Made by a program: the position numbers and the translations under genes | Source: a virus | DNA length: 64,000 nucleotides | IMG/VR virus record: IMGVR_UViG_3300045988_084534 | Coordinates: 37,276-101,275 of that record | Direction: 5' to 3' (one strand) | Notes under the pieces: model-generated | Told to the model about the DNA's origin: nothing | Seen by the model: only the letters and a program-made list of their open reading frames with translations | The model's database searches: none | In this document: one piece after another, positions 4,698 to 59,407 of the stretch | Layout: each line of letters opens with the position of its first letter | How positions within the stretch are numbered: position 1 is the first letter of the stretch

Positions 4698-5804
4698 TTG
4701 GCATTAACTATACCAACATTAAATCAGGTTGCCGCATTTGATGCGGGGTATCCGCAGACATTTACATTCAATGTTATTGGCGGCGACCAAGTAACGGGCA
4801 GTATATTGACCATTAAAACAAATGATGCGGCGGCAACCACAGTTTCTACGATTGAAACCACGTCATTTGATTATATAGTAACATTGCCAGCGGGTAGATT
4901 GACCAATGGCACATATTATCAGGCATATATTCAGACTAAGAACGCGGCGGGTGATACATCCGACCCGTCCAACATCATCCAGTTCTATTGCTATACAACG
5001 CCTGTCTTTGAGTTCGACCCAGCCGTTGTTACAGTAGGCAATTCTAGCGCGTCATTTAATGTGACATATGATCAGCTTCAGAAAGAGCCGCTTGTTCAAT
5101 ATAGATTCTATCTATATAATCAGGCTGGTATTAGAATTTCAGACAGTGGCGTGATTTACACAAATAGTACAGATGTGCCGTTTAGCGGCTCATATCTATT
5201 CACAGGATTTTCTAATAATACAACATATCAGATTGAATGTGTGGGCGTTACATCTGGTAATACATCTATCACTACGGGGCGTTCTACATTTACTGTATCA
5301 TATGAATCGCCATCTGTCTACTCAGATTTTATAGTCACTAATAACTGCGAAGGCGGCTATATGACCATAACATCTAATGTTGTCGGCATTGATGGTACAG
5401 TATTCCCAGAGCCGCCAAAATATGTAGATGACCCATATTCAACACAGGTAGTTCCAAAGAAAGAGTTGGATGTTACAGATAGTGACTCATATGTCGTATG
5501 GGATACTGGATATATCGTTACGGACAATTATGCTCTTGGTGCGTGGATTAGAAACCCCAATCCAAACAGTATGCTAATAGAGCTAAAGAATAATGACGGC
5601 GATATGGTGCAATTATGGTATATGACTAATGATGAAAAATCATGGATGGAACTATATGTAACACCAAGCGGCGATTTATGGAAATATGAAATTAAGAGCG
5701 CAGAAATCGCCGCACCGTCACATGATGAACAGCTATTTATCAAGCTGATATGTGAGAACAACCTATACGATATTAGTATAACTAATAGGGGGGCAGTGGT
5801 ATGA
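4698..5804 (+). CDS. Tail structural protein (distal-tail-like position, Ig/FN3-like N-terminal part)
   Basis: TTG start after AAGGAGG. Its position directly follows the TMP, the sequence is beta-rich, and its end overlaps the next gene. Confidence 0.5.
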   Translation: MALTIPTLNQVAAFDAGYPQTFTFNVIGGDQVTGSILTIKTNDAAATTVSTIETTSFDYIVTLPAGRLTNGTYYQAYIQTKNAAGDTSDPSNIIQFYCYTTPVFEFDPAVVTVGNSSASFNVTYDQLQKEPLVQYRFYLYNQAGIRISDSGVIYTNSTDVPFSGSYLFTGFSNNTTYQIECVGVTSGNTSITTGRSTFTVSYESPSVYSDFIVTNNCEGGYMTITSNVVGIDGTVFPEPPKYVDDPYSTQVVPKKELDVTDSDSYVVWDTGYIVTDNYALGAWIRNPNPNSMLIELKNNDGDMVQLWYMTNDEKSWMELYVTPSGDLWKYEIKSAEIAAPSHDEQLFIKLICENNLYDISITNRGAVV

Positions 5805-6712
5805 TTGGTATTCTAGGATATAATTTTTGTCGTGATGAAGATTGCCTAAATCCATATCCTACTCATGCTAATACGGTGCAATTTACTAGAGCGAGCAATG
5901 CTGTTTATGGGCATCTTAATATCACATCGAATATAGCCAATCCATATCCTGACGAAAATCCACCAACAGCATGGGATTTTAATACCATCATCAATATTGA
6001 TTTTGATGGGGATGTATCTGGCGGCTCGTCTGAAGGCGTAGAGGATATTATTGCTGTAAGAATCAAGCGGCGCATTCATGGTGAATTTGATTGGATGACA
6101 ATTAAGGAATTTACAATCACCAGTTCAGACCAGCTCAAATTTACCACTACAGATAATCTTGGGCTGAATTTCACCACATATGATTATGCTTTTGTTCCCG
6201 TTACGAATCAGGGTGAGGGCAATTATATTATTGCTGAAAGCAAGCTGTCAGAATTTGATGGTGTATTCATTTGTGACCAAGAGACCATCCATAAATTTGA
6301 GGCGGGTGTTGAATATGGCACTAATGATTATGTCCAGAAAATCGGCACGTTTGAGCCATATGGCAGGCAATATCCAGTTGTTATTAGTAATGGTCTAATC
6401 AATTATCAGACTGGTTCATTGACTGGCACAATTCTACCAGTTGATTATACATCCAATGGTAGGCTCAATCGCCAAGAAATGGTTGAAATTAAAAAGACGC
6501 TGGCGGCATTCATGACCAATAAGAAGCCAAAAATCATCAAGGATTTTAATGGCAACGCATGGCTCATTTATATTATTGATAATGTGTCTATTGATTACAA
6601 GAACAATTGGGGAATGGGCATTGCCGACATTACAGCCACATGGATTGAAACGGGTGATGTAAATAACAAGAGCGACCTGTATAAAAACGGATTAATTCCA
6701 ACGGAGGTATAA
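5801..6712 (+). CDS. Tail/baseplate structural protein
   Basis: ATGA overlap with the upstream gene; 303-aa ORF in the tail module with no specific motif recognised. Confidence 0.5.
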   Translation: MIGILGYNFCRDEDCLNPYPTHANTVQFTRASNAVYGHLNITSNIANPYPDENPPTAWDFNTIINIDFDGDVSGGSSEGVEDIIAVRIKRRIHGEFDWMTIKEFTITSSDQLKFTTTDNLGLNFTTYDYAFVPVTNQGEGNYIIAESKLSEFDGVFICDQETIHKFEAGVEYGTNDYVQKIGTFEPYGRQYPVVISNGLINYQTGSLTGTILPVDYTSNGRLNRQEMVEIKKTLAAFMTNKKPKIIKDFNGNAWLIYIIDNVSIDYKNNWGMGIADITATWIETGDVNNKSDLYKNGLIPTEV

Positions 6713-6713
6713 T

Positions 6714-8168
6714 ATGGCATATAATGTTGTAACCTCTGATTTAGATATTATCCGGCAACAGAGCATCAAGAAAATAATTCGGCTATATATACTAGATTTT
6801 AACTATGCTCGTGTTGCTGAAATCAGCGGTAATATGTTGGCTATGAATGTATCTATTGATTCAGAGTCAGATTTGCGCCGTAGCTGTAGCATTGAGCTTG
6901 TAGTAGTAGATGATTCATATAATGTAGCCGCTGGTGGACGTATATGGTTAGACAAATATATCCAACCATATATTGGCTATGAGAACATTCATACTGGTGA
7001 AGTACAGTGGTATAATCAGGGCATATATTTAATCAATGCTCCAAGCTGGCAATATGACGCTGAAACAAAGGTGCTCTCTTTTGCTGGGCTTGATTTGATG
7101 AGCAAATTGACGGGTTTGCGCAATGGGCAGCTAGAGGGCTTGACATATAGTATCCCAGCAGGACAAAATGTGCGCAATGTTATCATTGACACGATTAAAT
7201 TGGCTGGATTCAATAATTATATTGTATCAGAATGTAGAAGCAAGAACGGCGCAATCGTGCTTACTCCATATAATATAGAAATATCGGCAGGCGGCACAGT
7301 ATATGATATTTTGAGCGAATTGCGCGACATTATGCCCAATTATGAGATATTCTTTGATGTTGACGGCGTGTTTATTTATCAACCAATTCCAACTGGACAG
7401 AATGTTCCTGTTAAAATTGATGACACAATGTTAAAAAATGTGCTGCTCAATGAAGCCGTAGATACAGATTTTGAGACAGTTAAGAACTATATTGAGGTAT
7501 ATGGGCAAACATATGACCCCGATTATTATTCGGCTACGACCACATATTCAGGCGGCGTATTGAATCTAACCGTGTCCAGCTTGTCTACAGCAGCGGCTAG
7601 TGTTCCAAATGGTATATTGATTGGATTTACAGCGCCACAAGATATTAACGGCGCAATCAATGTTAAATTAAACAATCTGACATCTGCAATGCCGCTAATT
7701 GACCAATATGGTGAATCGACATATAGTCTTGTATCAGGTGGCTATTACATTATCCAATGGAATTATACAGATGCGTCAACATCGCCATACTATTATATTG
7801 GCAAGCAACAAATCAGCGCCATAGCAAAAGACGATAATCCAGATAGCCCATTTTATATTAGTGGTTCAGTCGGCATGATTAGAGAGGTACTGTCTGGAGG
7901 CGAATATGATAATATTATCACAGATTCATTAGCCCAGCAACAGGCAGATTATTCTTTGTGGCAAAAGACCCGATTACAGGATTCTATTGCATTAAGCATT
8001 ACGCCTGTACCATGGCTTGATGTCAATGATATTATCGGGCATAAGGCTGTTGGCGCATCAGAAGCAAAAAAATATATAGTGAAAAACATATCAACGGATT
8101 ATGGGCAGGTCGATGGTATGCAGACAATCACGGCTATTACCTATTATCCGTTATATCCAGATATTTAA
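6714..8168 (+). CDS. Baseplate/tail hub-like structural protein
   Basis: 484-aa ORF tightly packed after the previous gene. The call rests on position only. Confidence 0.45.
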   Translation: MAYNVVTSDLDIIRQQSIKKIIRLYILDFNYARVAEISGNMLAMNVSIDSESDLRRSCSIELVVVDDSYNVAAGGRIWLDKYIQPYIGYENIHTGEVQWYNQGIYLINAPSWQYDAETKVLSFAGLDLMSKLTGLRNGQLEGLTYSIPAGQNVRNVIIDTIKLAGFNNYIVSECRSKNGAIVLTPYNIEISAGGTVYDILSELRDIMPNYEIFFDVDGVFIYQPIPTGQNVPVKIDDTMLKNVLLNEAVDTDFETVKNYIEVYGQTYDPDYYSATTTYSGGVLNLTVSSLSTAAASVPNGILIGFTAPQDINGAINVKLNNLTSAMPLIDQYGESTYSLVSGGYYIIQWNYTDASTSPYYYIGKQQISAIAKDDNPDSPFYISGSVGMIREVLSGGEYDNIITDSLAQQQADYSLWQKTRLQDSIALSITPVPWLDVNDIIGHKAVGASEAKKYIVKNISTDYGQVDGMQTITAITYYPLYPDI

Positions 8169-8184
8169 TAAGGAGGGAATATAA

Positions 8185-8511
8185 GTGAGTACGGTTTTCC
8201 CCTCGGAAATTCAAACTTTTCCAACAATGCAAGATATGAGCGCCAGTGATGCCGCGCTGGTTAAGCAATATCAAGAGTTAATGAAGCAAGGCAGAATCAA
8301 TTCTGCTAGAGATGTATTGGCGCAAATCAGCAATTATCAGAATAAGCTAGTGACCGCAGAATTACTCAATACAATGAACGATACCATTGTGGCGCTAGAA
8401 GGATATTATACAACGAGATTTAGCCCAGCATATGTTGTATCTGCCACACAGCCAGCTAAACAGGATGTCGGTGATTTCTGGTTTAAGGTCAATAAGGAGA
8501 CAAGTGTCTGA
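8185..8511 (+). CDS. Small structural protein (paralog of 8511..8819)
   Basis: GTG start after AAGGAGGG. It shares the layout ...QY..(L/Y)...G....A...N.M...P....GD.(W/Y)F with the next ORF. Confidence 0.5.
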   Translation: MSTVFPSEIQTFPTMQDMSASDAALVKQYQELMKQGRINSARDVLAQISNYQNKLVTAELLNTMNDTIVALEGYYTTRFSPAYVVSATQPAKQDVGDFWFKVNKETSV

Positions 8512-8819
8512 TGAAATATCAAGATATACATAGAAGTGATGCGGCAATTTGGGCACAATATAAACAATATATTGACGAAGGAAAATATACTGAGGCTGCT
8601 AGTTTGATTGATGGGCTTGATGATAAGGCGCTCATTGCTAATGTATTTAATTACATGACAGGGCAAGATGGCGATTATAGTAAACCCAATCTCAAGACGC
8701 TACAAGAGCACCAAAGTAGCACATTCAAGCAAGACAGGATTCAAGTTGCTACTGAGCCGCCAGCCAATATGAAAGCAGGGGATGTATATTTTCATTTCGA
8801 CAGAGAAATAAGAGGGTGA
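8511..8819 (+). CDS. Small structural protein (paralog of 8185..8511)
   Basis: ATG overlaps the upstream stop (TGATG). The C-terminal PANMKAGDVYFHF matches PAKQDVGDFWFKV in the neighbour. Confidence 0.5.
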   Translation: MKYQDIHRSDAAIWAQYKQYIDEGKYTEAASLIDGLDDKALIANVFNYMTGQDGDYSKPNLKTLQEHQSSTFKQDRIQVATEPPANMKAGDVYFHFDREIRG

Positions 8820-8823
8820 ATAT

Positions 8824-9132
8824 ATGGCGACAACAAAACAAATTACAATGACAGAATATAATGGCACGGATTATGACGTGATATTGCCAAAATCTGTATA
8901 TACAGTGACTGGCACGTTATTAGGTACGGGATGGTCGAACAATCAGCAAACAATCAATATCCCGCAGGTTATGGCTGATAGTGCAGTTATCGTATCCTCT
9001 ACACCTGCTGATGCTGACAAGTATACCAATTCTGGCATTCTATGCACGGCTCAGGGTGATGGTACATTGACATTTACAAGAAAGAGGGCGGCAACATCCG
9101 CCAATATTGGAGTTAATATTTTCATTCTTTAA
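8824..9132 (+). CDS. Small tail-module protein
   Basis: 102-aa ORF with tight spacing to its neighbours. Confidence 0.45.
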   Translation: MATTKQITMTEYNGTDYDVILPKSVYTVTGTLLGTGWSNNQQTINIPQVMADSAVIVSSTPADADKYTNSGILCTAQGDGTLTFTRKRAATSANIGVNIFIL

Positions 9133-9147
9133 TAAGGAGGCGATGTC

Positions 9148-10023
9148 ATGTTAATGAATGTTCGCCCATCTTATCCAGAATTAGAGTATATCAATATTAT
9201 TGACATCACGCCAGAAGATAGAACATTTACAAGTGATATAGGTATAAGAAGCGTAAGTACATGGGGGCCTCTATATTATGAGGGTGAAGCATATCCACAA
9301 AAAGATACAGCGACATATTATCCGAGCGGACACACACCTCCGGGATATATAAGGTATGGTTTCAGAAATTTTACTGTTCATCCAATATCACAAGCCGAAT
9401 TAACTGTTGCTGGCACTGAATCAGAGCAGACATTTCAGCCAAGCAACAATGATGCTTTCTTATATAACAAAGTGACCGTTACTCCAAATCTATTACAGTC
9501 AAAACCACCAGTTACGCCATCTGCGACATCTCAACCTGTTACACCAGATAGTGGATATTATGCGTTGAATAGTGTTACCGTTAAGGGCTTGCCACTTGAA
9601 ACAAAGAATGTTCCAAGCATTACGCAAAACGACCAAGTTTTTACGCCATCTAGCGGATATTATGGCTTTAAGCAAATCAATGTTCCAGCTAGTACCACAT
9701 TGAAGATGTTGACCGTTACGCGCAATAGACCAGATAATATTCCAAATACTGTGGGATTTTCAACGATATATACAATATCTATTTTGACCACTAATAGCAT
9801 GGGATATACAGAGTATCAGAACGGAGTAAATATGATAACGGGCAGTTCTAGTCTAGGTGGTGTGGCAACAATTATTTGGGGTTATGGTGGAGATAGTATG
9901 CTTCAACAAGTGGTCAATTTCAATGAATTGGTAACTGTGACTAGTTCAACTATCAACATAAATATAAGTCAATTTGATCTTCGGTTCTCTGGCGAATATC
10001 AAGTGTTTATAACGGGGGCGTAA
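9148..10023 (+). CDS. Repeat-containing fibre/receptor-binding-like protein, paralog A
   Basis: Tandem units of about 35 aa, e.g. SQPVTPDSGYYALNSVTVKGLPLE and DQVFTPSSGYYGFKQINVP, followed by a unique C-terminal domain. Confidence 0.6.
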   Translation: MLMNVRPSYPELEYINIIDITPEDRTFTSDIGIRSVSTWGPLYYEGEAYPQKDTATYYPSGHTPPGYIRYGFRNFTVHPISQAELTVAGTESEQTFQPSNNDAFLYNKVTVTPNLLQSKPPVTPSATSQPVTPDSGYYALNSVTVKGLPLETKNVPSITQNDQVFTPSSGYYGFKQINVPASTTLKMLTVTRNRPDNIPNTVGFSTIYTISILTTNSMGYTEYQNGVNMITGSSSLGGVATIIWGYGGDSMLQQVVNFNELVTVTSSTININISQFDLRFSGEYQVFITGA

Positions 10024-10025
10024 AT

Positions 10026-10907
10026 ATGATTATTAACAAAAGCCCCAAGGAACTGCTTGGGTTACAAGAGAAAACAATGGAATATGGTGAACATATAACC
10101 CCAGATGCAGGTTATATGGGTTTTAGCAAGGTCACTATCAAAGGAATAACAAAGAGCGACGAATATGTTACGCCGGGAACGACTGAAATCGTGCTAACTA
10201 CGCCAAGTGGCGGCGCAGATACGATTGGCAGTGTGACAGTAAATGGAGTAAAGACGGATACGCTTACTGTATCCCCTAGTCAACAGACACAGGAATTTAC
10301 GCCAACAGCGCCGTCATCAGGATATGATAAGGTGGTTGTTAAAGCTGCTCCAAAATCTATTCTATTTGCCAATCCACAAGAATCCGATGTAACATACACA
10401 AAGAATGTCGGCGATTATGGTATTGGCAGCTTGCTTGTAAAATCTGCGGCGCTACAAGAGAGGACGATATATCCTTCAACATCACCGCAGACCATTAAGC
10501 CGGAATCTGGATATTATGGTATTAGCAAAGTGACTATCAAAGGCGGCACGACCTTAAAAAGCTATGAAAGGATATATCGTGGAGCTGGCGATTATTCTTA
10601 TTGGGATGCTAATGTACCAATAAATGAATTTATAGCAAATCCTACTTGTATTATAGTGTATGCTATCAACGATATGGACGCAGAGGGTGATGTCTATAAT
10701 CTATTTTCATTAACGGCATATCAATCCAATGGACGAATGTATGTAGATGATGGATATATGAGAACAAGGACTGCAAGCATTGCTGATATGTCATATACAA
10801 CGATTGGCAATAATAGGATGGGCTTTAATCTGCCTATATATAATAGTAATGATAGAGCGCTATATAAATCTGGGATGTTTTATTTCATTGGTATTTATGG
10901 TACATAA
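10026..10907 (+). CDS. Repeat-containing fibre/receptor-binding-like protein, paralog B
   Basis: About 5 units, e.g. EHITPDAGYMGFSKVTIKG, QEFTPTAPSSGYDKVVVKAAP and QTIKPESGYYGISKVTIKGG, followed by a unique C-terminus. Confidence 0.6.
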   Translation: MIINKSPKELLGLQEKTMEYGEHITPDAGYMGFSKVTIKGITKSDEYVTPGTTEIVLTTPSGGADTIGSVTVNGVKTDTLTVSPSQQTQEFTPTAPSSGYDKVVVKAAPKSILFANPQESDVTYTKNVGDYGIGSLLVKSAALQERTIYPSTSPQTIKPESGYYGISKVTIKGGTTLKSYERIYRGAGDYSYWDANVPINEFIANPTCIIVYAINDMDAEGDVYNLFSLTAYQSNGRMYVDDGYMRTRTASIADMSYTTIGNNRMGFNLPIYNSNDRALYKSGMFYFIGIYGT

Positions 10908-10928
10908 AAGGATAAGGAGGGAAAATAC

Positions 10929-11137
10929 ATGACAAATATTGAATTGGCAAAAAAGCACGAAGATGTAGCTAAGAAATATAAGACAGTATATATGTGGGGC
11001 TGTTTTGGTCATCCAGTGACCGAGGCGATTATCAGAGAAAAGGCGGCGCAATATCCTAGTTGGTATACAGCGGCAAAGCAGAGAGAACTAAGAAAGCTGG
11101 TCGGCAAGGGATATTTTGCATTTGACTGTGTAAATCT
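10929..11137 (+). CDS. NlpC/P60-type cell-wall peptidase (lysin), exon 1
   Basis: Ends in the ...GKGYFAFDCVNL catalytic-Cys motif. The downstream stop at 11157-11159 lies in the intron. The 5' splice site is at U11137 or alternatively U11131; both keep the frame. Confidence 0.75.
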
Positions 11138-12809
11138 CACTGACTTTAGTGCGCAATAATAGTAATGTTATTGTGTGTTTATTTGAATTGCTGGAAACCC
11201 CTTAGAGACATATCAACCACAACGTAGCTATGAAATATGGGCAAGCGTGATGGTTTGAAAATGATATAGATTGGGCAATCAGCAGCGAAGCTCCGAATAG
11301 GAGAACGTTCAACGACTATCCTGTTAGAGGGAGTACAACGCAAACGATTGGCGTTGGAAGCGGATAAGACCCTATTATATAGGGTGATGATATAGTCTCA
11401 TCTCATATGAAAGTATGAGGAAAATTGTTTGAGTTCACTTATAATACTATAAAAGCAAGGAGGTGGGTATGTGGACAAAAACAGACAACATTACAAGATG
11501 TCATTGCTTAAATGGTGTGAATCGAATAATAGTAATTTGGTTTACGAATGGGATGAAGCAAATGAAATGGCTATGAACGAGATTGGGTCAAGTAGTGGAA
11601 TAAAAGTGAAATGGATATGCTCTAGGTGTGGTTTTCATTTTGAGCAAAGACCTTCAGATAGGGTGAGGGGGCATGGTTGTCCAAAGTGTGCTAGAAAATC
11701 TCATTCAAGCGTCCCCGAAACGATATGTTATTTGGCTATCAAGCAGTATTTTTCAGATGCGATACATGGATATAAAACCGATTGGCTTGGACGTAAAGAA
11801 TTGGACATCTTTATCCCATCTATTAGTGTTGGCATTGAATATGATGGAAATTCTTGGCATAATAAATCCAGAAAACGAACAGATAATGACAAGACGTGGC
11901 TATGCGCCCAGCATAATATCTTGATCTATCGTATAAGAGAAAACGGATGCGAACCAATGGACGACGAGTCAAATAATATTTATTACAAGCCAAGCAAACA
12001 ATACAATGCTCTTAAGTATTCTATTATAGATGTACTAATGAGGCTTGGACATAATAATGTTGCTTTTGATGACTGGGAGTCGCTTATTAATAAGTCTAAA
12101 TGTGAATTTTCCAGTATTGAAAGAAGTAAATCTATTGGTGTAATAAATCCAGAATTTAGTGCAAAATGGGATTACGACAAAAATTATCCTTTAACGCCAT
12201 ATGATATATTGGCTCATTCCAATCATAAAGTATGGTTAAGATGTGATAAAGGACATTTGTATAAAAGAGCGCCAAACTATTCAAATCAAAAAGAATGCCC
12301 CATATGTATAAATAAAATTGTGCTTGAGGGCTATAATGATTTGGCAACAATAAGACCAGATTTGGCGTTGGATTGGAATTATGATAGAAATGGCGAATTA
12401 AAGCCAACGGAAATAACGTTCGGTTCTAATCGACGTATTTGGTGGAAATGCCATGCTTGCGGAAACGAATTTCAATCATCTCCAAATGCTAGAAAAGATA
12501 ATATGGGACATTGTTCAAAATGTGTGTTCACCAATGGCAATGAAACATTATCAAAAAACAAAGCGGTTAATAATAGTCTTGCTGAGTTTTATCCAGAAAT
12601 CGCAAAAGAATGGGATTATAACAATAATGAAAGAACGCCAGACAATGTTGCAAGGATGTCTGGATTGGAAGCGTGGTGGATTTGTTCAAACGGTCATTCT
12701 TGGAAGGCTAGTGTTCATAGTCGAACGCATGATGGGAAAAAGTGTCCATATTGTAAACAAACTCAAACAATAAACTGCTAGGCGTAGTGAACCTAGTTGA
12801 AAGAAAATG
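11138..12809 (+). mobile_element. Group I intron (td-like) carrying a homing-endonuclease ORF near its 3' end
   Basis: The core GUUCAACGACUAUCCUGUUAGAGGGAGUAC...GGAAGCGG...GAUGAUAUAGUCUCAUCUCAUAUGAAAGUAUGAGG matches the td-like cores of the other introns. The 5' block CCCUUAGAGACAUAUCAACC...GAUUGGGCAAUCAG matches the TMP intron. The tail UAGUGAAC...AAAAUG ends in G12809. Candidate P1 is UGUGU/GCGCA and candidate P10 is CUUUA/UAAAG. Confidence 0.75.
11471..12781 (+). CDS. Intron-encoded putative homing endonuclease: PD-(D/E)XK (Vsr/DUF559-like) core plus four treble-clef zinc-ribbon repeats
   Basis: GTG start after AAGGAGGTG. The nuclease core is ELDIFIPSISVGIEYDGNSWHN. There are four repeats of W(D/N)Y(D/N).N....P......S...(V/I)WW.C..GH.(W/F)......R......CP.C. 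Confidence 0.7.
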   Translation: MDKNRQHYKMSLLKWCESNNSNLVYEWDEANEMAMNEIGSSSGIKVKWICSRCGFHFEQRPSDRVRGHGCPKCARKSHSSVPETICYLAIKQYFSDAIHGYKTDWLGRKELDIFIPSISVGIEYDGNSWHNKSRKRTDNDKTWLCAQHNILIYRIRENGCEPMDDESNNIYYKPSKQYNALKYSIIDVLMRLGHNNVAFDDWESLINKSKCEFSSIERSKSIGVINPEFSAKWDYDKNYPLTPYDILAHSNHKVWLRCDKGHLYKRAPNYSNQKECPICINKIVLEGYNDLATIRPDLALDWNYDRNGELKPTEITFGSNRRIWWKCHACGNEFQSSPNARKDNMGHCSKCVFTNGNETLSKNKAVNNSLAEFYPEIAKEWDYNNNERTPDNVARMSGLEAWWICSNGHSWKASVHSRTHDGKKCPYCKQTQTINC

Positions 12810-13290
12810 TAAAGGAATTTTATGGGGCTGGAATGGTAATGCTAGGTCATATACAGGCGGCGCAAGATATGCTAGTAATGGCGTACCAGATGTTAGCGCA
12901 GATGGCATGATTGGCAAATGTAAGAATGTATCAACCACTGGCTGGGATAAGCTGGAAATTGGCGAAGGGCTATGGATGCCCGGACACTGGGGTCTATATA
13001 TTGGCAATGGTCTAGCAGTAGAATGCACGCCTATTTGGAAGAATGGTGTGCAAATCACGGCTGTTGGCAACATTGGTAATAAAGCAGGATATAATAGCCG
13101 CAAATGGACTAAACATGGAAAATTACCATATATTACCTATGTTCAGCCAGAGCCAGATACAGATGATAAGCATGAGGCGAATAAAGCCAAAGTAAAGGCG
13201 CGATTCGGCTTTACAGACAGCACTATTAAATGGCTTGATTCTTATAAATATAATAAAGACATCATGGACAAGCTGGCTAATAAAGGCTAA
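12810..13290 (+). CDS. NlpC/P60-type cell-wall peptidase (lysin), exon 2
   Basis: Continues KGILWGWNGNARSYTGGARYASNGVPD...MPGHWGLYIGNGLAVE (catalytic His region). The exon 1 plus exon 2 length is a multiple of 3. Confidence 0.75.
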
Positions 13291-13301
13291 GAGGTGAATC
13301 T

Positions 13302-14060
13302 ATGATTATCAATGCAAATCAAGGTGGTGGCGGTAATCTACAAGAAAAGACCGCCACCCCATCTACTGCACAACAGATTATTACCCCAGATAGTCAATAT
13401 GATGGCTTGAGCAAGGTGACTATTGCGCCTACGCCGCTAGAGGAAAAAACCGTAAAATCATCAACAGCGCAACAGACAATCACACCAACATCGCCTAATA
13501 TCGGATTTAGTAGTATTACTGTCGAGCCTAATCTATTACAAACAAAATCTGTGACATTGCCTACTAGCCAGCCGATTCAACCAGATACTGGATATTATGG
13601 ATTATCGGGAGTCAATGTATTAGCGCCACTATATCCATTAAACGTAACACCCACATCAACACAGCAAACATTTAATGTTCCTAGTGGATATTATGGGCAT
13701 GGTACTGTTACTGTTGGAGCAGCACCGCAGAATACGGGTTGGTATAAATATTTAACTCTGACAAACACAACCTCTTTATCTATATCGAATCCGGGAATTG
13801 ATGAAATTCTTATCTGTATGATAATGTCACAAGGAACAAATTTACAATATAACTATATTAAAAGTCTACAAATTGTCGGAGACCAATTCTGGAAGGGAGT
13901 TTCTGGCAGTGGAGAATTTATTAACAGTTCGGATTTTTCTGGTGGTAGTATTTCTATCAATAGTTCAACAATTTCTATTATATTACCACAATATAACGGC
14001 ACACAATTATATTTTAATGACTCATATTGTATAACATTTAGCGGAACTAAGATACCATAA
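13302..14060 (+). CDS. Repeat-containing fibre/receptor-binding-like protein, paralog C
   Basis: Four units (AQQIITPDSQYDGLSKVTIAPTPLE, AQQTITPTSPNIGFSSITVEPN, SQPIQPDTGYYGLSGVNV, QQTFNVPSGYYGHGTVTVG) followed by a unique C-terminus. Confidence 0.6.
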   Translation: MIINANQGGGGNLQEKTATPSTAQQIITPDSQYDGLSKVTIAPTPLEEKTVKSSTAQQTITPTSPNIGFSSITVEPNLLQTKSVTLPTSQPIQPDTGYYGLSGVNVLAPLYPLNVTPTSTQQTFNVPSGYYGHGTVTVGAAPQNTGWYKYLTLTNTTSLSISNPGIDEILICMIMSQGTNLQYNYIKSLQIVGDQFWKGVSGSGEFINSSDFSGGSISINSSTISIILPQYNGTQLYFNDSYCITFSGTKIP

Positions 14061-14082
14061 TTGATAAAGGAGGTCGGTAGAG

Positions 14083-14793
14083 GTGAATATAACATTAACG
14101 GGCACAAAAGTCAAGCTCGATAATCGCACATTAGCATTTGAGGGCAATAATGGCGTTGATGATATTATTGTCACTGTGGACACTGACCCGTCATGGACAT
14201 ATAAACTAGACATTGATTACGCAAATGAGAATTGTTGTTGCGGCGACGAGCATTATAATATCATTCAGCTAAATAGAGAGGGTGATGTGTGCTCGGTTAC
14301 GCTAACAATGGGTATGTTGCCGCATAATGGCAGATATATCATGCAGTTGCGCGGAATCAATGAGGACGGACGGGTGTATCACAGTGATTTATTTGAAGTA
14401 TGGGTAAAGAAATCAATCAACCCGTGGAAAATATATACGCCTGTTCCAAGCGAATTTTTACAAATTGAACAAAATATTACAGAGGCGAATCAGCATCCTC
14501 CTTATCCAGACCCCAATGGTTCAGGCTACTGGATGATATGGAATACTGAGAAGCGGCAATACGAGCTTAGTGATATTCCTATAACAGGTGGGAGTGGCGA
14601 TAAAACTTTTACGTTCGCCCAAGTAACAGCATCGGATACATGGGTTATTCATCACGGATTAAATAAGCATCCGTCTGTAACCGTGGTAGATTCAGGGAAC
14701 AATGTTGTCTTGGGCGCAGTGGAATATGTTGATTTGAATAATTGTATATGTAAATTCAACGCGCCTTTTTCTGGTAAGGCGTATTTGAATTAA
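14083..14793 (+). CDS. Tail-fibre-associated protein, unknown function
   Basis: GTG start after AGGAGG; 236-aa ORF between fibre genes. Confidence 0.45.
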   Translation: MNITLTGTKVKLDNRTLAFEGNNGVDDIIVTVDTDPSWTYKLDIDYANENCCCGDEHYNIIQLNREGDVCSVTLTMGMLPHNGRYIMQLRGINEDGRVYHSDLFEVWVKKSINPWKIYTPVPSEFLQIEQNITEANQHPPYPDPNGSGYWMIWNTEKRQYELSDIPITGGSGDKTFTFAQVTASDTWVIHHGLNKHPSVTVVDSGNNVVLGAVEYVDLNNCICKFNAPFSGKAYLN

Positions 14794-14813
14794 ATAAGGA
14801 GGAAGTATAAATT

Positions 14814-16562
14814 ATGGCTACAAAGAAAATTCTAGCAAATTTAGACCTTGTGCAAAATGAGTTACAAAATGCCGTGATTCAGGTGTTAGCTAGTGACCCT
14901 GCTACTGGCAAATTAGGGCAAATTTATTACAATAGCGCAAGTAAGGCGCTCATGCAATATGATGGTGCAAAGTGGAATAGGGTTGGTGTTGTATATCAGC
15001 AAGAATCAACCACTGGCGCTGTTATTACAGGACTTGATGATGCTGGCAATGTTACCACTACTAATGTAACCGGCTTAACTCTTGCTGATTATACACCTGT
15101 TGAGGGTGGCTATGTCAGCACAAATATGAGTCTAGAGGACGCGCTTAACGCTCTTGATACAGCCGTTAAGAATGCCGTAGCTGGTGGTGGTGAAGAGAAC
15201 CAGAACGCATGGTCTAAAATTTCTATTCCGGCTCAGAGTAAGGCTGATACGGCAGTTGCTGGTCAGCTTGAGGATACAACGCTAAGCTCTGATGCTAAAG
15301 TTGATACGTTCACAATCAAGACTGGGAATAAGTGGATTGATGTCAATGGCTCTGGCAAAACGGTTAATATTGGGCATAGCCTATCTGGCGCAACGGCTGG
15401 TGTATATGGCGCATCAAATACTGTTGCCAAAATTACGGTTGATAAAGCTGGTCATGTGACCGAAGTAAATAACGTAGAAATCACCCCAGAGGCTATTGGA
15501 GCGGCTACTACAGCAGAGGTAGAGGCAGCACAGAATGCGGCTACTGCGGCACAAGCAAGCGCAGATGCAAAGGTGGCTTCTGTCACTGCTACTGAAAATG
15601 GCGGCATTGATATTGGCGGCACTAAGACAGCTCCTACTGTTGGTATCAAGCTAGACCCAACACAGGGAAATGCGGCTACTCTAGGAGCGGCTGGTTTAAT
15701 GGTCACGATCCCAGAAGTAAATATTCCTGATTATACCATTGTCAAGCTAGGCACAGCAACAGAGGGCTATATTGCCACATACCAGCTTCAGAAAGATGGC
15801 GTTCAGGCTGGTGTAAATATTGATATTCCAAAGGATTATCTAGTCAAATCGGCTGAAATCAAAACATCTACAGGTGAGGGCGACCCATCTGGTCTACCTG
15901 AAGGCTCTAAATATATTGATTTTGTCATCAATACTAAGGTCGGCACAGGTGAAGAAAGCCATATTTACCTAGACGTTCAGAGCCTAGTTGACGCTTATAC
16001 AGCTGGCAATGGCATCGAGATTAGTGAAGCTAATGTTGTCTCAGCAAAGGTCGTTGCGGCTAATGGTCTGTCTGTTGATACAGATGGCATTAAGATGGGT
16101 GTGGCTTCTACTACTGAGGCAGGTGCAATGAGCGCGACTGACAAGACCAAGCTAGATGGTATTGATACTGGCGCTACTGCCAACACCATCACCCTGAATG
16201 GCACAGCGACTAAAACTCCTAGCTTCTATGCACCTACTACGGCTGGTACTAAGGGGCAACAGCTAGTATCTAATGGCACAGACGCACCTGTATGGCAGGA
16301 TATGCCAACCAACCTCAAGAAATATACGGCAACTAATGGTGCTATTACGGCGGCTGGTGGTGCATTCTCTTGGACTATTGCTGCCGCTACTCATGGCGTT
16401 TCTAGCCCTATCACAGTACAGGTATATGAGGTGGCAACTGGCGGCATGGTGCTAACAGATGTTGGCGTTGCCGCAAATGGCGATGTGACTATTGGTATTA
16501 ACGACACTGCGTCTGTTGGCACATTGACTGCTGGTACATATCGCGTAGTTATTATCGGATAA
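14814..16562 (+). CDS. Tail fibre protein
   Basis: The N-terminus LANLDLVQNELQNAVIQVLASDPATGKLGQIYYNSASKALMQYDGAKWNRVG is a typical fibre adaptor motif. The shaft is Ala/Gly/Thr-rich. Confidence 0.65.
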   Translation: MATKKILANLDLVQNELQNAVIQVLASDPATGKLGQIYYNSASKALMQYDGAKWNRVGVVYQQESTTGAVITGLDDAGNVTTTNVTGLTLADYTPVEGGYVSTNMSLEDALNALDTAVKNAVAGGGEENQNAWSKISIPAQSKADTAVAGQLEDTTLSSDAKVDTFTIKTGNKWIDVNGSGKTVNIGHSLSGATAGVYGASNTVAKITVDKAGHVTEVNNVEITPEAIGAATTAEVEAAQNAATAAQASADAKVASVTATENGGIDIGGTKTAPTVGIKLDPTQGNAATLGAAGLMVTIPEVNIPDYTIVKLGTATEGYIATYQLQKDGVQAGVNIDIPKDYLVKSAEIKTSTGEGDPSGLPEGSKYIDFVINTKVGTGEESHIYLDVQSLVDAYTAGNGIEISEANVVSAKVVAANGLSVDTDGIKMGVASTTEAGAMSATDKTKLDGIDTGATANTITLNGTATKTPSFYAPTTAGTKGQQLVSNGTDAPVWQDMPTNLKKYTATNGAITAAGGAFSWTIAAATHGVSSPITVQVYEVATGGMVLTDVGVAANGDVTIGINDTASVGTLTAGTYRVVIIG

Positions 16563-20237: not shown

Positions 20238-20561
20238 ATGTCTACAACACAAATTATTAACATTATTGTAGCAGTTCTTAGTGGACTAGCGGCTTGTATT
20301 CCACTAGTAGTTAAGCTAGTAGAATATGTAAAGAAAGCCACCCAAGAAAAGAATTGGGCTGGGCTACTTGGACTAGTTATGAAGTTAATTGCTCAAGCAG
20401 AGCAGAAATTTACTGATGGCGCGACCCGTAAAGAATGGGTTATGGCTATGGTTCAGACAAGCGCAGAATATGTAAATTATCCATTAGATACTCAAGCTCT
20501 AAGCAATATGATTGATGAGCTAGTCAAGTTGACCAACAAAGTTAATGTTGACAAGAAATGA
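20238..20561 (+). CDS. Holin-like protein (LL-H-type layout)
   Basis: 107 aa with an N-terminal TM helix (IINIIVAVLSGLAACIPLVVKLV) and a charged C-terminal part. Preceded by GGAGAGGAAGG. Confidence 0.5.
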   Translation: MSTTQIINIIVAVLSGLAACIPLVVKLVEYVKKATQEKNWAGLLGLVMKLIAQAEQKFTDGATRKEWVMAMVQTSAEYVNYPLDTQALSNMIDELVKLTNKVNVDKK

Positions 20562-20812
20562 GTAAATTAAATTATAAGCGAAAATGGCAAAAAGGGCAGA
20601 TGGCTCGGACGTTAGTAATATACTGCGTCCGAGCTATTACCTTAGTGGCAGTATGGGCAGTAGCCGTCAAAACATATGCCGTCATTAGATATGGCGCAAC
20701 GGATATTAGCGACGTGCTGATTTATGTTGCATCGGCATTTGGCGGAGAATTGCTCTTACTAGCTTTTAAGCGCGTATTTGCCAAAAAGAATGAAAATACA
20801 GATATAGAATAG
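20558..20812 (+). CDS. Two-TM membrane protein (second holin/antiholin-like)
   Basis: 84 aa with two hydrophobic helices. Overlaps the upstream stop. Confidence 0.45.
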   Translation: MSKLNYKRKWQKGQMARTLVIYCVRAITLVAVWAVAVKTYAVIRYGATDISDVLIYVASAFGGELLLLAFKRVFAKKNENTDIE

Positions 20813-58335: not shown

Positions 58336-59407
58336 TAAGTCATTTCATCTACACAGTAAGCAGAGGTGTTTACTCTTACTCCTTCGCACATCCTAACAAT
58401 TTGTGCCCCTCGTAATCTAATGATTACACTTTCTCAACCCTCGATTACTCTGACTTACCCAACACCCTCTTATCATTAAGCAAGTTTACATCGTAGTTGT
58501 TGGGTGCCTGAATGACTAGGCATTACATAAGACTCATATTGGGCGTGCTTACTACACTTGATATTGAAATCTAGCCCCTCTGGTGCGGGATAGGGAACTC
58601 GAATCCCTACGCCTTGCGGCAACAGATTTTAAGTCTATCGTGGCTGCCATTACACCAATCCCGCATATTCAATCTCAAGCCGACTTCCTACCTCATAGCT
58701 ATTTCTAGCATCGGCTCGTGAATGATGTTTACATATGATGTGCTATTACGCCAAAAAATCCATGTCTCTAAGGCATATCTCAACATACAACATAATGCTT
58801 AGAGAGACAAATTTGTATGCCAACAGTCGCTAACTGCTCTTGAGAACAAGTGGATATTGGACTACCATTTCTGGACGGGGCGACCGATTTATCCTTATGC
58901 AAAGCACTATGTTCATCCACTGTTAGTGACTCGCGATTGGGCTTCCTCCAATTTAACTGTCACCATTGCCACGATTTACTCTTTAGACGATGGCTGCTTC
59001 TAAGCCAACGTTTCATATGCTTGAATAATATCCTTATATCACCTTTGCCGTTATGTTTTTGTCCTCATGCTAACGGAACACGCTCAGGCGCGACCCCAAT
59101 TCTCTATTAAGCTATCTGCCGCTTCTCAAACTCTGCACAGACCCGCTTCACAGGTGTGATATAGATTTGACGGTTATCTTCAAATCCGTTCGGATATTAT
59201 ATTGATACAGTATTTGTCTTTGTACTTCAGACACTCCCACCGCTGTATCACCGGGTTCGAGCCGTTTCTTTACTCTAGCTGGCTCTATACACTAGCTCTA
59301 AATGATGGCTGTTCATCTCACTCCATTTACTACTGCTCCTGTACTCCCCAGTCCGGCGTTCCATGGATAACGTCATCTGTGGGCTTCGTAGCACCATCAT
59401 CTTTACA
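58336..59407 (-). ncRNA. Large non-coding locus collinear with 23S rRNA domain II (5' segment 58665-59407, embedded tRNA-Leu, 3' segment 58336-58580)
   Basis: There is no credible - strand ORF. A consensus promoter lies at 59414-59442. Blocks matching E. coli 23S occur in 23S order, including an exact GUUGGCUUAGAAGCAGCCAUC (58989-59009) and GCGUAAUAGC (58742-58751). See the findings for the full block list. The ends are approximate. Confidence 0.6.
58581..58664 (-). tRNA. tRNA-Leu (anticodon UAA), type II, CCA encoded
   Basis: Acceptor stem GCGGGAU/AUCCCGC, 3-bp D stem, anticodon arm AUAGA-CUUAAAA-UCUGU, variable arm GCC-GCAA-GGC, T arm AGGGA-UUCGAGU-UCCCU, and discriminator A followed by CCA. 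Confidence 0.9.

Follow-up and report, generated by a model that had tools for sequence, protein, structure and literature searches.

Homing endonucleases with a Vsr-like, EDxHD-type catalytic core have been known since I-Bth0305I, which Bacillus phage 0305phi8-36 encodes in a group I intron of its recA gene and whose EDxHD residues are E170, D196, N208, H213, and D222 (PMC3239194; PDB 3R3P). Homing endonuclease genes (HEGs) combining three to five CapR/DUF4379/DUF723-like domains with an EDxHD/Vsr-like nuclease were then reported in group II and group I introns of phages, and these CapR/DUF4379-type HEGs were termed a large unrecognised outgroup (PMC12350094, 2025). Although labelled "HNH", the family PHROG 559 was identified as a VSR-signature protein encoded in terL introns of Bastillevirinae (PMC11878797, 2025). 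Here, we analyse a 64,000-nucleotide (nt) stretch of the IMG/VR virus record IMGVR_UViG_3300045988_084534 (the whole stretch is hereafter called the window), in which a lysin gene is split by a group I intron whose 436-amino acid (aa) open reading frame (ORF) joins a Vsr-like nuclease to DUF4379 zinc ribbons. We regard this element, with good confidence, as a mobile self-splicing group I intron with a homing endonuclease; the intron is genuine and probably active.

A Group I Intron Interrupts the Lysin Gene

Two ORFs of the + strand, placed at 10929-11159 (76 aa) and 12787-13290 (167 aa) in the ORF list, are the halves of one lysin gene; a gap of ~300 nt separates the first of them from the 436-aa ORF. 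As the original prediction had proposed, what splits the gene is a group I intron, the only one that Rfam finds in the whole 64-kb window (RF00028, match at 11122-11419 over the full model, 1-253; 93.9 bits vs. a gathering threshold of 50; E 7e-23). Joined, the two exons make 693 nt, that is, 230 aa plus a stop, the same length as the intron-less gene of the sister contig L003. The joined protein has 4589 homologues, the best of which, P0121 (230 aa, uninterrupted, 96% identical), is encoded by L003.

The presence of the intron and its boundaries can be read directly from such intron-less relatives. L003, 95.9% identical to the window, is colinear with it over 4930-11140 and becomes alignable again from 12823 (blastn); across the insertion site its DNA reads GTA AAT CTC ACG AAG GGC, within the allele GATTGTGTAAATCTCACGAAGGGCTTACTCTGG. 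All 81 intron-less alleles (L003 and 80 from IMG/VR) encode DCVNLTKG, and uninterrupted homologues have FDCVNLTKG(I/L)LWGWNG in this region. The colinearity of L003 and the 81 alleles therefore place the intron at 11141-12809, with the junction inside the Thr71 codon (AC/U; the slash marks the junction). A T flanks the insertion on both sides, so that 11142-12810 is an alternative description yielding the same mRNA, but only 11141-12809 ends in the obligatory G; this omega G, 12809, immediately precedes exon 2 (U12810) at the junction set by the intron-less alleles. Exon 1 ends in ...CUCAC and exon 2 starts with UAAAGG, and the predicted ligated junction is ...AAUCUCAC/UAAAGGA in RNA and ...GTAAATCTCAC/TAAAGGAATT in cDNA.

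The original prediction had the gene split at its catalytic Cys and exon 1 ending at ...DCVNL. Both statements need correction: the encoded sequence continues to DCVNLTKG in 81/81 intron-less alleles, L003 is colinear through 11140, and the junction lies four codons (11 nt) after the Cys67 codon. This codon (11127-11129), that of the presumptive nucleophile, is in exon 1, and the insertion point falls in the helix that carries Cys67, a typical HEG target in conserved catalytic sequence. The same intron occupies the same site in L001, L002, L044, L045, and L046; besides the window phage, we count L001, L002, and L044-L046 as three further intron-bearing lineages. Public data call the lysin as two fragments.

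Conservation of the Ribozyme Core

The P1-P9 structure (table 1) was drawn from the Rfam alignment and from complementarity, and its pairs were counted on six copies of the intron, five of them distinct. Over its 83 pairs, 99.3% of the cells are paired, vs. 32-44% in controls slid by one to three columns, and nine pairs (in P2, P5, P5a, P5c, and P6) are changed on both sides, vs. zero to two in the slid controls; it counts against these figures that the structure was derived from the same sequences and that the sample amounts to three lineages. P3, P4, P7, and P8 show invariant pairs or one-sided changes only, and P7.1 and P7.2 are 100% paired and invariant. When the window is compared with L001 or L002, the core is ~94% identical, the ORF ~71%, and the exons ~73%, and synonymous sites are saturated (proportion of synonymous differences, pS, 0.75-0.80). 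The compensatory changes assign C11154 and A11155 to P2, which shortens the P1 of an Rfam-style alignment.

P7.1 and P7.2, which come after the 5′ strand of P7 and before the 3′ strand of P3, are the mark of subgroup IA. By this feature the intron can acceptably be called a subgroup IA type, and the "td-like" core of the original prediction holds at the subgroup level (P7.1/P7.2) and not beyond it. At the 3′ end, the last 50 nt of the intron are 94-96% identical between copies with ~71% identical ORFs, and the hairpin of this tail contains the UAG stop codon of the ORF (12779-12781). A pairing that would close the ORF loop, GUUCACU (11433-11439) with AGUGAAC (12786-12792), is present in the window and was dropped, as it is not conserved in L001 or L002. 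When IMG/VR was scanned with the conserved core GGAGAACGTTCAACGACTATCC, related introns were recovered at 34 loci, all at insertion sites other than this one, and a megablast search of window 9000-15000 against GenBank phages gave no match.

Pairing at the Splice Sites

The guide 5′-CUUUAGUGCG-3′ (11144-11153) serves both P1 and P10. Its AGUG..G pairs with C11136, C11138, A11139, and C11140 of exon 1 and with U11141 of the intron, and its CUUUA (11144-11148) with UAAAG of exon 2 (12810-12814), the P10-like pairing already noticed in the original prediction. The pairs C11140-G11149 and U12810-A11148 use neighbouring guide nucleotides, so that P1 and P10 are contiguous on the guide; such adjacent positions of both exon ends are the geometry expected for exon ligation. 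An unconstrained minimum free energy (MFE) fold of 11124-11176 picks this P1 hairpin (CACUG/UAGUG) plus P2. In all four intron-bearing lineages, CTC AC/T is kept; intron-less alleles also use CTG or CTT for the Leu and have ACA, ACG, or ACC, never ACT, for the Thr. This pattern fits a pairing constraint. A scan of IMG/VR with the guide sequence CTCACTGACTTTAGTGCG yielded only a chance match, in the unrelated high-GC contig L006.

A U·G pair at the 5′ splice site is near-universal in group I introns. Three points weigh against splicing at C11140: the splice-site pair defined by homology is C11140-G11149, not U·G; P1 has just five pairs, all invariant, so that covariation gives it no support; and the Rfam model itself favours a P1 with U11131·G11151. 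The original prediction had hesitated between U11131 and U11137, preferring U11131 with a P1 of UGUGU/GCGCA. Splicing there would supply the conserved U·G pair and, the 9-nt shift being in frame, give a 227-aa lysin reading ...FDCV-KGILW. We consider such splicing very unlikely, because AAATCTCAC (11132-11140) is present in L003 DNA at the intact site and is thus exon, colinearity with L003 running through 11140, past both proposed positions, neither of which is supported. Use of U11131 would delete N69-L70-T71, although N-L-T is kept in 81/81 intron-less alleles, with V68 and K72 invariant around it and L70 at least 90% conserved. Moreover, compensatory changes place A11155 and C11154 in P2, which leaves the upstream P1 with three exon pairs, the MFE fold prefers the downstream hairpin, and P10 is not contiguous with such a P1. 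In the Rfam covariance alignment (window 11122-11156), the consensus requirement for a U·G pair draws P1 to U11131·G11151, and the 5′ splice site is thereby placed 9 nt upstream of its homology-defined position; splice sites taken from this alignment alone would mis-annotate the lysin with an in-frame 3-aa deletion.

If splicing is at C11140, which we retain, no part of the model is less secure than P1 with its C-G pair, and no feature of the RNA is more unusual. Natural C·G pairs in place of U·G have reportedly been described in fungal mitochondrial group I introns. The non-canonical pair might also be the sign of a dead, non-splicing intron in a lysin pseudogene, but this is hardly credible for a core conserved at ~94%, with nine compensatory pairs, while neutral sites are saturated, and for two exons whose reading frames are open, with no invariant residue lost, in four lineages.

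The Lysin

Clustered at 50% identity, the family of the joined lysin comprises 2296 clusters. The protein matches PHROG 3513 ("endolysin"), the match being confined to an internal stretch of the profile (positions 915-1035 of 1434), and it has no match in Pfam, NlpC/P60 (PF00877) included, or in NCBIfam. In its relatives, a domain of ~190 aa occurs in fusions with LysM, SH3, SLH, GH25 muramidase, glucosaminidase, phage tail lysozyme, CHAP, or CW_7 modules, and these partners clearly mark it as a module of peptidoglycan hydrolases.

Four residues, D66, C67, H130, and E142, do not vary among the homologues. In the AlphaFold2 (AF2) model (predicted local distance difference test, pLDDT, 90.8), C67 starts a helix (67-75), H130 starts a strand (130-136), and E142 ends another (139-142), the last two residues thus being 12 positions apart on adjacent strands. 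A profile of the family gave ten weak PDB matches (E 0.014 to 2.6), all of them NlpC/P60 endopeptidases aligned on a GHxGIYxG..(H/E) motif. On the opposite side, a Foldseek search of PDB with the model returned nothing below E 1, and because so confident a model is without a PDB fold match, it is reasonable but weakly based to assign the protein to NlpC/P60 and to regard Cys67 as catalytic. The "catalytic Cys" of the original prediction is therefore weakly supported, by its invariance with D66, H130, and E142 and by the weak profile matches, and not by fold comparison.

The Intron ORF Encodes a Putative Vsr-like Nuclease Flanked by Zinc Ribbons

The AAGGAGG that precedes the GTG start of the ORF is also found before the start in L001, L002, and L044, and in L044 the orthologue, also of 436 aa, begins with an ATG that aligns with GTG 11471, for which reason ATG 11498 was rejected as the start; the frame of ATG 11469 was rejected because it closes after 40 codons. 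The protein consists of one zinc ribbon, the Vsr-like nuclease, and three more ribbons and, as the original prediction had stated, is of neither the GIY-YIG, the HNH, nor the LAGLIDADG type. Pfam detects DUF4379 (PF14311) in four stretches (187.7 bits vs. a gathering threshold of 24.5; E 3.5e-56), in agreement with the four treble-clef zinc ribbons that had been predicted, but no NUMOD or HTH domain and, at E up to 1, no HNH family; NCBIfam has no match. Each ribbon has four Cys/His ligands, which are invariant or at least 90% conserved (C50, C70, and C73 are invariant in the ORF family), and all 16 are intact. Both in sequence and in fold, ribbons 2-4 match DUF4379 proteins of kinetoplastid mitoribosomes.

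The ELDIFIP...IEYDGNSWHN block, named in the prediction of a Vsr-like core, is the most conserved of the ORF family, and profile comparison supports that prediction. The top PDB match of the nuclease-segment profile is 3r3p_A, the I-Bth0305I catalytic domain (E 0.009). Against full I-Bth0305I (sequence from phage 0305phi8-36), hhalign gives 85% probability and E 6e-6 and pairs D112 with D196, D125 with N208, H130 with H213, D138 with D222, and K141 with K225, thereby covering four of the five EDxHD positions. D112, D125, H130, and D138 are invariant or consensus in the ORF family; E83, in a TSFPE motif conserved at 90% or more, corresponds to E170 by position only. The candidate active site comprises E83, D112, E123, D125, H130, D138, and K141. 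In the AF2 model (mean pLDDT 88.6), aa 81-157 form a helix-strand-strand-strand-helix-strand arrangement. When the same segment of 30 homologues was submitted to Pfam, it matched MTES_1575 in 26 (best 1e-8), DUF2726 in 23, DUF559 in four, and Vsr in one. The full-length Foldseek search of PDB, dominated by the ribbons, gave weak matches to the restriction enzymes EcoT38I (E 0.014), BstEII, and PspGI and to the nucleases Bax1 and SfsA. Among viral models, numerous matches from giant viruses and from Listeria and Staphylococcus phages bear the names "restriction endonuclease", "homing endonuclease", or "treble clef". A phmmer search of PDB with the full ORF found only DUF4379 mitoribosomal proteins, 3r3p being reached by the domain-only profile.

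Two observations speak against a nuclease: the segment (~140 aa) of the window protein alone falls below every Pfam nuclease threshold, and the similarity to I-Bth0305I is modest (19% over 53 columns). The ORF could then be one that no longer is, or never was, a homing endonuclease, that is, a decaying passenger or a protein with another role, for example an RNA-binding maturase. The missing Pfam match, the RNA-bound ribosomal and assembly proteins that make up the solved DUF4379 structures, and the divergence of the ORF to ~66% between copies whose ribozymes are ~94% identical would all agree with this. We nevertheless judge it improbable, since neither the EDxHD-equivalent residues nor any of the 16 zinc ligands have been lost, all four intron-bearing lineages have a full-length ORF, and its divergence between L001 and L002 (nonsynonymous, dN, 0.114; synonymous, dS, 0.763; dN/dS ~0.15) shows purifying selection. 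Its relatives, which include short free-standing genes as well as proteins of 600-750 aa with more ribbons in bacterial mobile elements, also occur free-standing in phages, as is typical of HEGs. The divergence of the exons within 30 nt of the junction, described below, is likewise as expected of co-conversion.

The best PHROG match of the ORF is PHROG 559 (E 7e-29), labelled "HNH endonuclease", a misnomer for a family made up of Vsr-like nucleases that carry DUF4379 ribbons. Short stand-alone versions of ~210 aa, with a single ribbon and the nuclease, occur in 54 records of Listeria phages, A511 and P100 among them; gp39 of A511 corresponds to L043 2459-3091. Near the 3′ end of the ORF, a 1-nt indel (window 12755-12781 vs. 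L001 5270-5290 and L002) alters the C-terminus, which reads ...CKQTQTINC* in the window and in L044 and ...CKQLEQ* in L001; as a result, the stop codon of the window ORF falls within the conserved 3′ hairpin.

Mobility and Proposed Mechanism

Intron-bearing and intron-less lysin alleles coexist in closely related phages. The window and L003, otherwise ~96% identical, agree at 47/60 positions within 30 nt on either side of the junction and at 58/60 positions 31-60 nt away (window 11110-11140 and 12810-12840 vs. L003 6183-6242 for the divergent patch). This patch is probably a co-conversion tract or the result of target-site drift; it matches no sampled intron-bearing donor. Proteins of 162-165 aa in the homologue list that correspond to exon 2 only are candidate intron-bearing alleles, and P0227, the one checked, is one; L047, which carries P0219, is not a split allele.

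The intron is arranged with the ribozyme (P1-P9) in its first ~280 nt, a HEG with its own Shine-Dalgarno sequence after P9, and a tail of ~30 nt. For splicing, the guide would pair with the end of exon 1, CUCAC (P1), and, after guanosine attack, with the start of exon 2, UAAAG (P10); joining of the exons as ...GUA AAU CUC AC/U AAA GGA... would restore DCVNLTKG and give a 230-aa NlpC/P60-like peptidoglycan hydrolase. The activity and target of the nuclease and the role of the ribbons we infer by analogy with I-Bth0305I. The flanking DUF4379 ribbons of this Vsr-like, EDxHD-type enzyme most likely read DNA. During mixed infection, intron-less lysin alleles would be cut near the insertion site, and recombinational repair would copy the intron with short flanking exon sequence into the cut allele.

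The only solved DUF4379 structures are kinetoplastid mitoribosome proteins and assembly factors (mS66, mt-SAF33; PDB 7aor, 6sga, 6hiv, 6yxx), in which the domain contacts RNA, so that one may ask whether DNA is the sole ligand of the phage ribbons. Because the solved proteins bind rRNA, the ribbon array might also bind the intron RNA. One may imagine that the array works as a modular reader of nucleic acid, with a few base pairs recognised per ribbon, possibly in a dual endonuclease/maturase; that this would hold jointly with efficient splicing of a phage ribozyme through a C-G pair is a speculation that we think rather unlikely to be right as a whole.

Genomic Context

The holin-like genes of the original prediction, ~7 kb downstream of the lysin, are indeed found at 20238-20812, as a PHROG holin and an overlapping membrane ORF. 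In the window, the lysin lies between fibre-like ORFs, whereas in L044-L046 (ENA and Logan contigs) the split lysin is directly followed by a Phage_holin_6_1 gene in a normal lysis cassette; the lysis module appears to be rearranged between these phages. The setting in the window might suggest that the split gene encodes a virion-associated (tail) peptidoglycan hydrolase used at entry rather than an endolysin, as might the PHROG match to an internal segment of a long profile and the occurrence of the domain at the C-terminus of proteins of 1700-1900 aa. This reading is a doubtful one, given the holin gene immediately after the split gene in L044-L046, the many relatives of 230-340 aa with LysM, SH3, or SLH wall-binding modules, which is the usual endolysin architecture, and the fact that no other lysin candidate was seen adjoining the window holins at 20238-20812.

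The ORFs flanking the lysin (291, 293, and 252 aa; 9148-10907 and 13302-14060) share a repeat of ~35 aa, Q..ITP(D/S)sGYyG(F/L)SkVTV...l..K.v. These three ORFs have no PHROG match and presumably encode fibre or decoration proteins of an undescribed repeat family. The sole tRNA of the window (58584-58664, - strand, Rfam 49.4 bits) has a long variable arm and an anticodon loop CUUAAAA, and is read as a phage-borne tRNA-Leu(UAA). The genomic relatives are prophage-like regions from gut Clostridia, among them Oscillospiraceae and Lachnospiraceae, and the phage is one of ~100 kb of gut Clostridia.

Table 1. Features of the split lysin locus and of the downstream holin region (window coordinates)
Feature	Position	Strand	Remarks
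Lysin exon 1	10929..11140	+	212 nt, M1 to first two bases of Thr71 codon
Group I intron	11141..12809	+	1669 nt, ends in omega G 12809; RF00028 and intron-less alleles
P1 hairpin	11136..11153	+	exon CUCAC and U11141 with internal guide AGUGCG (11148-11153)
Ribozyme core	11154..11419	+	Rfam alignment and pair counts
P2	11154-11173	+	GUAA loop
P3	11178-11185 with 11361-11368	+	
P4	11189-11194 with 11279-11284	+	
P5/P5a/P5b/P5c		+	in core, listed between P4 and P6
P6	11285-11308	+	
P7	11314-11318 with 11393-11397	+	
P7.1	11319-11332	+	in 40-nt insertion of Rfam alignment
P7.2	11336-11356	+	in 40-nt insertion of Rfam alignment
P8	11369-11385	+	
P9	11402-11419	+	GAAA loop
Shine-Dalgarno-like AAGGAGG	11458..11464	+	6 nt upstream of ORF start codon
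Intron ORF, putative homing endonuclease	11471..12781	+	436 aa, GTG start, 3′ of P9
DUF4379 zinc ribbon 1	11513..11704	+	~aa 15-78; ligands C50, C53, C70, C73
Vsr-like/EDxHD-type nuclease domain	11705..12115	+	~aa 79-215
DUF4379 zinc ribbons 2-4	12143..12769	+	~aa 225-433; ligands C258/H262/C276/C279, C327/C330/C348/C351, C405/H409/C425/C428
Conserved 3′ tail	12778..12809	+	hairpin CUAGG...CCUAG (12778-12796), then UUGAAAGAAAAU, omega G 12809
Lysin exon 2	12810..13290	+	481 nt, third base of Thr71 codon to stop; holds H130, E142
Holin	20238-20561	+	PHROG 6918, E 8e-9; ~7 kb downstream of lysin
Small membrane ORF	20558-20812	+	84 aa, overlaps holin end

Comparison with Known Introns and Endonucleases

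The T4 td and nrdD (sunY) introns belong to subgroup IA2, have P7.1/P7.2, lie in conserved coding sequence, and carry a free-standing-type HEG. The GIY-YIG ORF of td is inside the core, so that an ORF 3′ of P9, as in the window, is more like nrdD/sunY; both T4 introns have a U·G splice-site pair, in contrast to the C-G of the window. Group I introns have reportedly been known in phage lysin genes since 2000 and, going by the title of that report, their lysin family, insertion site, and intron ORF all differ from those of the window.

An unannotated group I intron with a related core is present in the Enterocloster phages CB457P1, CB457P2, and CB473P1-P3 (OP172753-OP172757), the CB457P1 core being the best-ranked match in an isolated phage (77% identity across 61% of the query core, vs. 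68% in the other four). In CB457P1 (L005, OP172753.1 8296-9715), the intron ORF is also downstream of P9, but it is I-TevI-like (GIY-YIG) and annotated "intron-associated endonuclease 1", whereas that of the window is Vsr-like. The CB457P1 intron also splits a different gene, represented by two "hypothetical protein" coding sequences, with an empty feature table under the match. Its GIY-YIG ORF indicates that HEGs are exchanged on a common ribozyme scaffold.

To our knowledge, no member of the DUF4379/Vsr HEG group has been characterised biochemically. The present locus leaves the current understanding of introns or homing unchanged, but it is a well-resolved natural system, with an intron-bearing phage, a 96%-identical intron-less sister whose target is intact, three more lineages that have the intron, and hundreds of intron-less targets. 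Such a system could show how DUF4379 zinc ribbons recognise nucleic acid and whether, in vivo, a group I ribozyme tolerates C-G at the cleavage site.

The novelty of endonuclease type implied by the original prediction does not stand, as I-Bth0305I (PMC3239194) and the HEGs of PMC12350094 and PMC11878797 are precedents. I-Bth0305I resembles the window ORF in coming from a phage group I intron, in its Vsr-like core with aligned catalytic positions, and in having a separate DNA-binding part. However, it has N-terminal NUMOD/HTH repeats, a C-terminal nuclease, and no zinc sites, whereas the nuclease of the window lies between one and three ribbons; in addition, its ORF interrupts P5, whereas that of the window follows P9. 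The HEGs of PMC12350094, compared by their description, are alike in being borne by phage introns and in uniting treble-clef repeats with a Vsr-like nuclease, but the nuclease is C-terminal and the repeats are distantly DUF4379-like, in contrast to the bona fide DUF4379 repeats (187.7 bits) that flank the nuclease here. From these HEGs and those of PMC11878797, the window also differs in its host gene, a lysin, and in its clade, phages of gut Clostridia. Some novelty resides only in the C-G splice-site pair and the uncharacterised zinc-ribbon array; the endonuclease type is not new, and what sets this one apart is a nuclease in the middle of the protein, clear DUF4379 repeats, the host gene, and the host clade.

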